DNA of 64,000 bases. Origin: a virus (lineage: Duplodnaviria > Caudoviricetes). Under the pieces are notes generated by a model. That model ran no database searches. It saw nothing but the letters and a program-made list of their open reading frames with translations, and was not told the DNA's origin. Below, in pieces: positions 56,211 through 61,832 of this stretch; positions within the stretch are counted from its first letter, which is position 1, and each line of letters starts with the position of its first letter. The stretch lies in the IMG/VR virus record IMGVR_UViG_3300027566_000003; one strand, given 5' to 3'. Made by a program: the position numbers and the translations under genes.

Positions 56211-56239
56211 GTTTATTCCTCCTTGGATATTAATTTAAT

Positions 56240-56290
56240 TGATACATGTAATTTGTATCAATATGTATCAATATGTATCAATATGTATCA
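56240..56290. repeat. Four tandem 10-bp repeats (AT[A/T]TGTATCA) plus one inverted TGATACA, in the sroE-like 5' leader
   Basis: 56251-60 ATTTGTATCA; 56261-70, 56271-80, 56281-90 ATATGTATCA; TGATACA at 56240-46. Confidence 0.9.
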
Positions 56291-56297
56291 TAATTAT

Positions 56298-56326
56298 ATT
56301 ATATAATAGTATAAACAAAAAAGCAA
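56298..56326 (-). promoter_or_regulatory. Promoter for the sroE/sroF-like pair
   Basis: TTGCTT-17 bp-TATAAT immediately upstream of the repeats. Confidence 0.6.
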
Positions 56327-56427
56327 GATATAATTCACTTAAAGATATATGTTATTTGATTATGTTTGGTCTTGTTTTGTTGTGTTGTTATTGGTTGGAT
56401 GGATTTTGGTTTAAGGGTATCGTTGTC

Positions 56428-58004: not shown

Positions 58005-58034
58005 ATTATATCTTACAATGGATATGTATGTCAA
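58005..58034 (-). promoter_or_regulatory. Promoter for the HTH-mazF and agrB unit
   Basis: TTGACA-18 bp-TATAAT. Confidence 0.65.
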
Positions 58035-58072: not shown

Positions 58073-58100
58073 TATAGGGAAGACCGTAGCCTTCCCTATA
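58073..58100. terminator. Stem-loop just after agrD
   Basis: TATAGGGAAG-8 nt-CTTCCCTATA; no U-tract on the minus strand. Confidence 0.45.
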
Positions 58101-58112
58101 TGTAATATGAAC

Positions 58113-58232
58113 TTATTCGAAACATTTAAGGGTTTCTGGTTGATAACTCCACATTGCGGAAGCTAAACATAAGGAACATACTGTAGCAATTGTGATAAGA
58201 CATCCTGCAATAATAGTATATTTGTTTTTCAT
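58113..58232 (-). CDS. agrD: AgrD-like cyclic autoinducer peptide precursor (39 aa); not in ORF track
   Basis: AAGGAGG RBS; TAATG overlap with the upstream gene; MKNKYTIIAGCLITIATVCSLCLASAMWSYQPETLKCFE*, with a hydrophobic leader and a clostridial-type xxWxY-QP-E..K tail. Confidence 0.8.
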   Translation of the reverse strand: MKNKYTIIAGCLITIATVCSLCLASAMWSYQPETLKCFE

Positions 58233-59062
58233 TAGAATTCACCTCCTTTTTCATTAATTTTTACATCATCCATTACTATATCCTGCGTAGCAAGATTTTC
58301 GTATGTCTGGTGTATTCTTTTTTCAACTTTTAGGATATAATTAACTATTAATAATATAAATGTTATAGTAATCGTCGGGATAATAAACATCATAACTACT
58401 ATAATTAATTGTTCAAAAAACGATAAATTTATTAAAATTAAATCTATTCCTATTAGTTTAATTAAGTAAATCATTGTAATCATTATACCTATCAATAAAC
58501 TAAACATTGATCTTTTTAAGAAACTATTTTTTAGTATTATATCAAATAACTTAATTTTTACATCTTCACTTTTTTTTACTATTAAGTATGTCAATATAGA
58601 ATATTCTATTACTCTTGCTGGTAATGAACATAAAAAATTCAAAATAAAGTTGGAGTTTATGTATAAGATATTTGTTTTTGTGAGAGATAATATTAACGGG
58701 TAGTAGCATTCTAATATTGAAATAATGAAAATTCCTAATATTGTATAAAACAATGCTTTAAAGTATTTAATCTTCTCTTGAAGTAAATTATTATTTTTTA
58801 TAACAACTAATGTTAATAAATATAATACTAGTATACCAGTTATTTGGGCAATAGATTTTGAAATATTTGTTAATCTTGCAAAACTTATTATAAAAGACAT
58901 TCCAATTGCTGGTAAAGCGACCCATTTTATATTATCTTTCCACATTCTGATATCTAATAAATCATCTCTACTTATACCTATTAATACTATTGCTACAACG
59001 AACAATTCTTCTGGTAAACTTACTAAAAACATGTTTAATAAGGCATTAATTGTACTTTGCAT
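58232..59062 (-). CDS. Polytopic membrane protein resembling an AgrC/VirS sensor domain, without kinase domains
   Basis: 276 aa, about 7 hydrophobic segments, short cytoplasmic tail; no H-box or HATPase motifs; translationally coupled to agrD. Confidence 0.6.
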   Translation of the reverse strand: MQSTINALLNMFLVSLPEELFVVAIVLIGISRDDLLDIRMWKDNIKWVALPAIGMSFIISFARLTNISKSIAQITGILVLYLLTLVVIKNNNLLQEKIKYFKALFYTILGIFIISILECYYPLILSLTKTNILYINSNFILNFLCSLPARVIEYSILTYLIVKKSEDVKIKLFDIILKNSFLKRSMFSLLIGIMITMIYLIKLIGIDLILINLSFFEQLIIVVMMFIIPTITITFILLIVNYILKVEKRIHQTYENLATQDIVMDDVKINEKGGEF

Positions 59063-59114
59063 ATGTATCTACTCCCTATCTCTTATTATTTATCTTATTA
59101 TTTATCTTAGGATA

Positions 59115-59144
59115 ATTATACCATATGCAAAGTATATAAGTCAA
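59115..59144 (-). promoter_or_regulatory. Promoter for the sensor-like gene and agrD
   Basis: TTGACT-18 bp-TATAAT with TGn extended -10. Confidence 0.65.
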
Positions 59145-59153
59145 TAAATAATT

Positions 59154-59717
59154 TTATATTTTGTTTATTATATGTATTTGGTTGGACGCTTTTATGGAAT
59201 TGTAAGTAATTATAAATACAAACGATCTGAATATTAAATCCCCTGGCGACATACAACACCATCCGAAATCCCACACATCACAAAGCGGTATCATTTTTGT
59301 AAATTCATCTCCCATTATATGATAGTCTCCATACGGTAATGCTTTAACAAACATATCATGTTTTGCATATCCAGTTGCCCATGAGTTAGAAAAAAATACT
59401 GGCATTTTCCCTGAATTAGCTCTTATTGCAATTGTATTAAGTATACTACCTATCCAAACAAGAGGAATAAAACAAAAATATAACTTCATTTTATTATAAG
59501 ATATCGCCAATAATAAGAAACAACTTAAATAAACAGTTTTAAATAAATATGTATATTTAACTAAAGAATAATCACCTTGCCAAATTGTCGATTCAAGATA
59601 AATGTATAGAAGCACCATAAACATAACAGGGTAAATACTCCATTTTTTAAAAATAGGAAGTATTTTATAGTTATTCCATTTGGCAACTAAAAAAGATAAG
59701 AAAACAGTTTCAATCAT
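59154..59717 (-). CDS. DUF5317-like membrane protein
   Basis: GSILNTIAIRANSGKMPV and LCDVWD...SPGD signature; multi-TM. Confidence 0.65.
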   Translation of the reverse strand: MIETVFLSFLVAKWNNYKILPIFKKWSIYPVMFMVLLYIYLESTIWQGDYSLVKYTYLFKTVYLSCFLLLAISYNKMKLYFCFIPLVWIGSILNTIAIRANSGKMPVFFSNSWATGYAKHDMFVKALPYGDYHIMGDEFTKMIPLCDVWDFGWCCMSPGDLIFRSFVFIITYNSIKASNQIHIINKI

Positions 59718-61412: not shown

Positions 61413-61832
61413 TTATGCATAAACTACACCATTTTTATTTCTTAATTCTACCAATCCAAACTGTATACCGATTCCTCTATCAATTCTTAACATAGTTTCC
61501 TCATCGCATTGTCCTATTTTTTCTTCAATCAAATCTCTCGTGACTGGCATGGACTGTTCGCAGAGAGCAATAGAATCCATTTTTAGGCCAGAATTTCTAC
61601 TGATGGGTATATGAGTAGGTAATTTTGATTTTGTGGTCACAGAAGTTAAAGGACATATATGTAGTACATTGGAATATTGATTACAGGCGTTGTTGCTAAT
61701 TATCACTACGGGACGCTTAAATTGTTGGATAGATCCATTACTGTTGGGAAGATTTGCAATATAGATATCGCCCCTCTTAATCTCTTTTTGAGCTTGAACA
61801 TTATTTATTGTTTGTTTCATAATACTAATCAC
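61413..61832 (-). CDS. mazF: Orphan PemK/MazF endoribonuclease
   Basis: KRGDIYIANL...KRPVVIISN...PLTS...LPTHI...DSIALCEQ; no antitoxin-like neighbour. Confidence 0.85.
   Translation of the reverse strand: MISIMKQTINNVQAQKEIKRGDIYIANLPNSNGSIQQFKRPVVIISNNACNQYSNVLHICPLTSVTTKSKLPTHIPISRNSGLKMDSIALCEQSMPVTRDLIEEKIGQCDEETMLRIDRGIGIQFGLVELRNKNGVVYA

Follow-up and report, generated by a model that had tools for sequence, protein, structure and literature searches.

How can a cyclic peptide signal be read if the genome that encodes it holds no kinase? The question is raised by a locus of a large Clostridium-type phage, the virus record IMGVR_UViG_3300027566_000003 of IMG/VR (Duplodnaviria; Caudoviricetes), a record of 94,410 bp that is 56% complete by CheckV. 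The window, the whole stretch of 64,000 nt that was analysed, has a G+C content of 28% and carries every gene on the minus strand. In it, a gene for a membrane protein of 276 amino acids (aa) stands directly before an agrD-type prepeptide gene and downstream of a gene for a DUF5317 membrane protein. Agr signalling is understood as a chain from peptide to kinase to regulator. An earlier note on this DNA described the 276-aa protein as a kinase-less, AgrC-like receptor that signals by means other than a phosphorelay. All the elements it listed are present, and its interpretation was borne out in part. We see an even chance that the protein is the peptide-specific, kinase-less partner by which the cyclic peptide from the phage's AgrD is recognised, most likely as its receptor, and that it signals via its conserved cytoplasmic face.

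The membrane protein and its peptide

The 276-aa gene is translationally coupled to agrD: its stop codon overlaps the agrD start as TAATG, and the AGGAGG ribosome-binding site for agrD sits within its last codons. The AlphaFold (AF2) model, with a mean predicted local distance difference test (pLDDT) of 75, has seven long helices, the last of which continues to about residue 271. Over 48 family members, the presumed cytoplasmic loops contain on average 4.6, 3.5, 5.3 and 3.1 lysine plus arginine residues, the remaining loops 0, 0.9, 1.0 and 0.6. From this alternation of positive and nearly uncharged loops a topology of seven transmembrane (TM) helices follows, with the N-terminus outside and the C-terminus inside, as the earlier note had supposed in counting roughly seven. 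TM7 ends near residue 243 and leaves a cytoplasmic tail of 33 residues, close to the 35 or so given in that note. The claimed lack of an H-box and an ATPase domain was confirmed by the absence of HisKA, SPOB_a, HATPase_c and HATPase_c_5 matches in the protein; its sole histidine, H251, is Q or R in relatives and thus not conserved. Two cytoplasmic motifs are conserved in the family, D34-x-L-D37-x-R39-M-W and E247-K-x-I-Q-Q-T-Y-E-N-L, and the best-conserved parts of the protein include the N-terminus, TM1, the cytoplasmic insert with the first motif, the TM helices added in comparison to a shorter bacterial homologue, and the helix after TM7.

Known families gave no name to the protein. It matched no Pfam or NCBIfam entry, and in Pfam, NCBIfam and PHROGs no family was found for it, for 54 diverse relatives or for an orphan paralogue described below. 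A search of the ESM Atlas returned just unnamed clusters, mostly viral. Fold searches with the model reached a best E-value of 1.8 in the PDB (Foldseek) and a best Z-score of 7.9, on unrelated helical proteins (VIA-align). A CAAX/CPBP protease identity, suggested by a 'PEE' motif in TM1, was rejected, the protein having neither a conserved histidine nor a Pfam match.

Relatives found by a word-based search were 269-279 aa long among the matches listed, and a dedicated search for longer, kinase-fused forms found none. A profile search of 1.84 billion representatives yielded at least 224 clusters at E<=0.001 and a largely viral family; the best 150 of the 224 clusters span 54-326 aa, the short ones looking like fragments and none reaching kinase length. 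The family was carried by 12 viral contigs, one contig of a metagenome-assembled genome (MAG) labelled Clostridium sp., one contig (149 kb) of a Clostridiaceae assembly and 49 metagenome contigs. A pattern scan of 185,579 species genomes with the family found no relative; with AgrB, a second scan of these genomes hit a single phage-like MAG contig, on which the family is present as well. Among 391 Clostridiaceae genomes searched there were three carriers, all with the phage-type module, and a phage record collection held no match to the locus by DNA or protein. In every sufficiently long locus (about 60 loci) the gene order was conserved: MazF, an endonuclease of variable position, DUF5317, the membrane protein, agrD, a fusion of a helix-turn-helix (HTH) domain to MazF (HTH::MazF), AgrB, a second membrane-protein paralogue in about half of the loci, a 449-aa protein (p449) and a MrpR-like recombinase. 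An order kept in about 60 loci is not due to chance. HTH::MazF comes after agrD in all loci that extend far enough. DUF5317 lies upstream of the membrane-protein gene except in two loci, L006 and L095, from which it is absent; in the window its assignment, first made in the earlier note, was upheld by a PF17248 match of 57.6 bits against a gathering cut-off of 25. On the 149-kb Clostridiaceae contig (L119, G346:C25:104000-123900) the whole module is much more divergent, with about 35% identity, a peptide tail NEPR instead of QP and an extra 100-aa gene between HTH::MazF and AgrB.

By its layout the 39-aa open reading frame after the membrane-protein gene is assigned to AgrD: it has a leader, a predicted ring that starts with serine, a Pro/acidic tail and a nearby agrB, and it resembles clostridial AgrD, whose five ring residues precede HQP or YQP. 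The roughly 40 different phage peptides share one layout: hydrophobic leader, invariant Ala-Ser, four variable positions, [Y/H/N]-Q-P-[K/E] and, near the end, a conserved cysteine. The serine at the start of the ring implies a lactone, and about 30 Ser-lactone ring variants occur among the phage loci. The sole variant with a cysteine ring, C-R-F-W-L, is present on two contigs (L102:3763-3894, L117:542-673). A hidden Markov model built from 21 bacterial AgrDs ranked phage peptides above all others of 900 small reading frames, with E-values down to 1e-13. The clade of the window itself scored weakly (E 0.24) and is linked via other phage AgrDs; the window's own peptide also stayed below the threshold of the TIGR04223 model.

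The membrane protein changes with the ring. In partial Mantel tests on 30 phage loci with all four proteins, ring and membrane protein were correlated with r 0.52 (p<=0.0005) when the other three proteins were controlled, in comparison to 0.09 for AgrB, 0.10 for DUF5317 and -0.05 for HTH::MazF. After addition of the AgrD leader and tail as controls the correlation was still 0.45, and it was lowest in the segment of the membrane-protein gene nearest to agrD. In the window's clade, the membrane proteins are 91-96% identical among SAMW[S/T] alleles, 81-86% between SAMW and SALW, and 64-68% between SAMW and SAFW[S/T] or SVFW[S], a pattern independent of the identity of the neighbours. Two pairs of loci exemplify this. 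L070 and L084 share 94% identity in DUF5317 and 96% in HTH::MazF, but 66% in the membrane protein; L072 and L075 have AgrB proteins of 99% identity, the rings SAMWS and SALWS, and membrane proteins of 83% identity. Sliding nucleotide identity between L070 and L084 revealed a divergent block from the promoter gap to the end of agrD, that is, the membrane-protein gene plus agrD. The membrane protein and agrD thus form a 'pherotype cassette', while DUF5317, HTH::MazF and AgrB recombine independently. Between the same two loci, the C-terminal half of AgrB (L070:7145-7626) is a second divergent block, of 68-82% nucleotide identity beside 93-96%, inherited independently of the membrane-protein/agrD block.

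The second membrane-protein copy after AgrB, present in about half of the loci, forms its own group and is not followed by an agrD. Among phages whose rings differ, these orphan copies share 75-100% identity; with the primary copy in their own genome they share only 33-54%. The paralogue resembles an additional sensor, tuned to a common signal, more than another export component. It is absent from the window (56211-56427) and from its 94-kb record; fragments of it remain in L001 and L070.

Ancestry in bacterial agr operons

A likely host-type Clostridium MAG, with an AgrC closest to proteins of the C. estertheticum group, contains an agrD-agrC-agrB locus and many GHKL kinases. The same MAG has an operon of DUF5317, a 161-aa membrane protein, AgrB and AgrD. 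The 161-aa family is present in 127 of the 243 Clostridiaceae genomes searched, and the order DUF5317 - short protein - agrB - agrD was exact in 17 of 20 fetched bacterial loci, the short gene overlapping agrB. C. perfringens has a four-gene operon CPE1563-CPE1562-agrB-agrD, in which the first two genes carry no annotation beyond 'hypothetical' (PMC2706048). Synteny, together with an AgrD of nearly C. perfringens type in L053, suggests that the short membrane protein is the counterpart of CPE1562 and DUF5317 that of CPE1563.

Comparison of the phage family with the 161-aa family by hhalign gave 96.6% with an E-value of 4.8e-10 over 136 columns (residues 7-158). The 161-aa family in turn aligned to clostridial AgrC sensor domains in profile-profile comparisons with 74-80% (E 1.5-2.9e-5), and a joint profile, built from the short family and the first 178 aa of the phage family, reached 88.9% (E 2.4e-6, 140 columns) against 55 clostridial AgrC sensors. 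All pairwise alignments share one register, in which S-x-P-E-E of TM1 corresponds to 'PE' of the short family and 'IEA' of AgrC, and E118 of the phage protein (TM4) aligns with a glutamate conserved in the short family and in AgrC. Control profiles of AgrB, DUF5317 and a GGDEF TM domain gave 0.1-1.0% and reversed AgrC 0.2-0.5%, and twelve block-shuffled AgrC profiles did not exceed 3.2% with the short family or 0.6% with the phage family. Reversed or block-shuffled versions of the short family reached up to 76% against the phage family, with a score of 39.9 (69.6 for the real one), because blocks of 22 columns preserve local motifs; the 96.6% therefore rests mainly on the E-value and the 136-column alignment. 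Taken together, a place of the phage protein in the AgrC-sensor homology has moderate support from these profiles. The designation 'AgrC-like' in the earlier note held as a remote homology over about TM2-TM5 (joint profile; pairwise up to TM1), but the protein is not a truncated AgrC; it is an extended form of the protein of about 160 aa from bacterial agr operons of the C. perfringens type.

The idea that the protein has nothing to do with agr, acting for example in superinfection exclusion or lysis control and merely being linked to agrD, could draw on the lack of an annotated domain and on the fact that profile matches of membrane proteins can be compositional. We consider it very improbable. 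The profile scores lie far above the matched nulls, the association with agr genes holds in about 60 phage loci, as does that of the short homologue in the fetched bacterial agr loci, and the protein co-diversifies with the ring.

The short homologue sits with DUF5317 in bacterial operons without a linked kinase; therefore both the DUF5317 partner and the absence of a linked kinase came to the phages with this operon type and are not phage inventions. What the phages added to the short form is a cytoplasmic insert of nine residues with the nearly invariant D-x-L-D-x-R-M-W, two more TM helices and the conserved cytoplasmic helix (E-K-x-I-Q-Q-T-Y-E-N-L) with an acidic tail. Instead of a protein of about 150-170 aa whose gene lies directly before agrB and overlaps it, the phage locus has one of 276 aa and 7 TM helices, coupled to agrD and with agrB two genes downstream. 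In five of six loci checked, the bacterial operon is followed by a membrane enzyme of 560-572 aa with six TM helices, GGDEF and HD-GYP. The phages lack this enzyme and carry HTH::MazF instead. The TM domain of the GGDEF/HD-GYP enzyme was considered as a relative of the AgrC-like family and was unrelated by profile comparison. Variant bacterial arrangements were seen as well: the short homologue directly before a PAS-HisKA-HATPase kinase of 616-618 aa, three short homologues in tandem, and the short homologue followed by agrD without agrB. In 17 bacterial operons, the short homologue alone co-varied with the ring (partial r 0.275, p 0.005).

These operons also suggest a different role, that of an accessory in biogenesis or export. 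Together with AgrB, and perhaps DUF5317, the protein would help in presenting, flipping, exporting or trimming the AgrD intermediate. Its ring specificity would come from handling the ring, and the receptor would reside elsewhere, e.g., in a host kinase. We regard such a role, the main rival of a receptor, as possible, if rather unlikely. To our knowledge, no clostridial proteins have been assigned to the export and leader-removal steps of autoinducing peptides (AIPs). The position of the short homologue directly before agrB, with overlap, agrees with this role, as does the fact that the operon type makes the peptide while the C. perfringens receptor VirS is unlinked (PMC4963840, PMC2706048), and the 6-TM GGDEF/HD-GYP enzyme adjoining the bacterial operons is another receptor candidate. 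However, the ring is tracked by the 276-aa protein and not by AgrB, the known maturation enzyme, and an orphan paralogue without agrD is hard to explain by export. Furthermore, the remote homology indicates a sensor module, and the phage-specific additions are conserved cytoplasmic surfaces.

A possible reading of the cyclic peptide without a phosphorelay

The earlier note had seen no LytTR/AgrA gene in the window, and this extends to the whole 94-kb record, from which LytTR, HATPase_c and HATPase_c_5 are absent. As to a kinase or agrA elsewhere in the genome, five related records likewise lack LytTR, HATPase_c, HATPase_c_5 and Response_reg; two of them are 100% complete, with 166,652 bp (terminal repeats) and 230,300 bp. 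Response_reg is also absent from the 94-kb record, so that no cognate AgrA was found in the phage records, and GGDEF is absent from the 94-kb record and four relatives, both complete ones included. The host-type Clostridium MAG encodes AgrC-type kinases, and a cognate kinase may be present on the host side. Hence the proposal of signalling without a phosphorelay stands for the phage genomes, which lack the parts, but not for the host, whose kinases could still take part.

Host kinases are the basis of another explanation. AgrC- or VirS-type kinases of the host would read the phage peptide as an agonist or antagonist, and the 276-aa protein would serve as a sink or decoy, an insulator or an inhibitor of the host receptor. 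In staphylococci, lactone analogues of thiolactone AIPs are often antagonists, and apart from serine in the place of cysteine the rings of the phages are similar to those of the host (CFWFS, CLWYT); the likely host-type MAG has an agrD-agrC-agrB locus and many GHKL kinases. Nevertheless we think this improbable, as about 30 phage-specific rings with matched membrane-protein alleles suggest private phage channels and not a common host target. Dominant-negative jamming of the host AgrC by heterodimers, one option of the earlier note, is unlikely because the similarity to host AgrC is very low and the DHp dimerisation helix is missing. That note also put forward sequestration or release of HTH::MazF and a complex with DUF5317 as conceivable output routes.

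We favour a receptor since the protein diversifies together with the AgrD ring, as would be expected of a ligand-specific partner, since it is a remote homologue of AgrC sensors with an N-out, C-in topology and the complete phage relatives lack phosphorelay and c-di-GMP parts, since the phage-specific additions are cytoplasmic and strongly conserved, and since the orphan paralogue without agrD fits a sensor better than an export component. In such a system, a stand-alone 7-TM module would have evolved from the protein of about 160 aa of bacterial DUF5317-x-agrB-agrD operons, a remote relative of AgrC sensors. The five-residue Ser-lactone (S-A-M-W-S here) would bind it from outside, and a conformational change would be passed through the cytoplasmic face to a cytoplasmic phage protein by protein-protein contact, not by phosphotransfer. 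In E. coli, Mlc-PtsG is a precedent for the control of an HTH regulator by a membrane protein that sequesters it. The best candidate for the output partner is HTH::MazF because it is always adjacent and specific to these phages. Through its action on the neighbouring repressor-type genes, those for p449 and the MrpR-like recombinase, the choice between lysis and lysogeny may be influenced.

Several observations weigh against a receptor of this kind. Aligned directly with AgrC sensors, the phage family reaches 25-34%, and residues 160-276 (TM6-7 plus tail) align with nothing in AgrC, in the short family or in the protein's own N-terminal part. A sequence search of the PDB found no AgrC membrane domain, and hence no solved AgrC sensor for a fold comparison. 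Every family member is known from sequence and models alone, and the link between the 276-aa protein and HTH::MazF is taken from gene order alone. In C. perfringens, the published AIP receptor is the unlinked VirS kinase, so the short homologue need not be a receptor (PMC4963840). Tight physical linkage to agrD could also produce co-diversification, which a factor for ring-specific export or maturation would be expected to show just as well. Shared ancestry, physical linkage and the rapid evolution of the membrane protein, the fastest of the set, all inflate the Mantel statistics. Allelic substitutions occur throughout the membrane protein and are not concentrated in the outer loops: a receptor pattern 'variable outside, conserved inside' was not seen, outer and inner variability being 0.46 and 0.46 (p 0.74).

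Locus, known systems and significance

In the direction of transcription the region reads MazF, NUMOD-type endonuclease-like gene, DUF5317, promoter-like site, 276-aa gene and agrD, followed by a hairpin, a promoter-like site, HTH::MazF, AgrB, p449 and the MrpR-like recombinase (Table 1). The promoter-like site in the intergenic gap between DUF5317 and the 276-aa gene is the second best of the region and a match to the consensus only. The hairpin behind agrD was not called an intrinsic terminator in a terminator scan. In AgrB, H105 and C112 are invariant and spaced as the catalytic histidine and cysteine of AgrB. No recognisable antitoxin gene was seen adjoining either of the two MazF-type genes. 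The position of the 538-aa zinc-ribbon/NUMOD-like gene varies among the loci (the window; L099, L113, L001, L005, L006, L013): before DUF5317, in the gap between DUF5317 and the membrane protein, or after AgrB. The gene behaves like a mobile homing-endonuclease gene.

Table 1. Positions of the features of the locus in the window, and of related genes in other loci
Feature	Position	Strand	Evidence
Stand-alone MazF	61413-61832	(-)	
Zinc-ribbon (DUF4379 x3), NUMOD-type endonuclease-like gene, 538 aa	59765-61381	(-)	
DUF5317 membrane protein, 187 aa	59154-59717	(-)	PF17248, E 1.9e-15
Promoter-like site TTGACT-18-TATAAT with TG, preceding the 276-aa gene	59115-59144	(-)	11/12 consensus matches
7-TM kinase-less AgrC-sensor-like protein, 276 aa ('memb276')	58232-59062	(-)	Topology, remote profile homology
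agrD-type prepeptide, 39 aa; predicted ring S-A-M-W-S, then YQPE	58113-58232	(-)	
12-bp hairpin 3' of agrD, without U tract	58073-58100	(-)	RNA fold -19.3 kcal/mol, z -6.4 vs shuffles
Promoter-like site TTGACA-18-TATAAT, preceding HTH::MazF-agrB	58005-58034	(-)	12/12 matches, best of the region
HTH::MazF fusion, 267 aa	57152-57955	(-)	PemK_toxin E 4e-18 over residues 110-220
AgrB, 235 aa	56428-57135	(-)	PF04647, E 3e-33
Orphan paralogues, examples	L003:8764-9597, L007:8611-9432, L010:8746-9597, L011:8824-9687		
GGDEF + HD-GYP neighbours of bacterial operons	L120:94-1797, L122:2223-3926, L123:93-1775, L124:2271-3962, L125:2199-3917		
Variant bacterial arrangements	L049:6782-9129, L050:6739-9068, L056:2379-4094, L059:2520-3178		

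The invariant polar residues of DUF5317, taken over phage and bacterial members, include N94, N101, H133, D147, D150, S157 and D160 and are enzyme-like. Its AF2 model (pLDDT 79) had no fold match in the PDB. The motifs N-x-G-x-MPV and S-x-GD suggested an aspartyl peptidase similar to signal peptidase II, but fold searches gave no support (best Z 6.9) and this identity is a speculative one. We found no paper mentioning DUF5317.

With AgrC the 276-aa protein shares the character of a polytopic, N-out membrane module adjoining agrD (clostridial AgrC, e.g., in L016), the conserved glutamates in TM1 and TM4 in one register over three families, although the best joint alignment starts after TM1, and the co-variation with the ring known from the hypervariable AgrC sensor of staphylococcal agr groups. 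It differs from this HPK10-type kinase in the lack of DHp/H-box, GHKL ATPase and AgrA partner, in its length (276 versus about 435 aa) and in TM6-7 and the tail, which cannot be aligned. Nearer is the short bacterial protein, by the homology of residues 7-158, the DUF5317 gene upstream and the agr loci without a linked kinase, but the phage form is coupled to agrD and not to agrB, HTH::MazF is inserted and a GGDEF/HD-GYP neighbour is missing. Phage phiCDHM1 carries agrB, agrD and agrC without agrA (PMC3901668; reviewed in PMC11945551). It is likewise a Clostridia phage with agr signalling genes and no agrA; however, it was described with an agrC kinase homologue, whereas in the phages studied here no kinase was found and the locus derives from another agr operon type. 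A functional analogy, without sequence relationship, may exist to arbitrium (AimR-AimP-AimX) of SPbeta-group phages, where peptide variants of the phage are also matched to receptor alleles just upstream of repressor-type genes. Arbitrium uses a linear, imported peptide and a cytoplasmic TPR receptor, the present phages a cyclic peptide made by AgrB and a membrane receptor candidate. We found no paper on a kinase-less AgrC-like protein or on the function of the two upstream genes of the clostridial operon, and the pherotype cassette of peptide and putative receptor is new here.

A bolder conjecture, which we regard as unlikely in its entirety, is a third type of phage-phage communication. A Ser-lactone made by AgrB would be read by a kinase-less 7-TM receptor that gates HTH::MazF, a DNA-binding RNase, by contact and so sets lysis or lysogeny; dozens of private pherotypes would be kept as receptor-peptide cassettes, and in 'orphan' clostridial agr systems the short homologue would be a component that binds the peptide and has been overlooked.

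In this widespread group of large phages, the peptide-making genes travel with a sensor-like, kinase-less membrane protein, and the joint diversification of receptor-like and peptide genes is a signature of private communication channels, as in arbitrium. If the protein is a receptor, it would define a non-phosphorelay way of reading cyclic peptides, and its alleles with their peptides would be matched pairs on which specificity could be tested. The uncharacterised genes of the C. perfringens-type agr operon, without an assigned role since 2009, would also gain a function.

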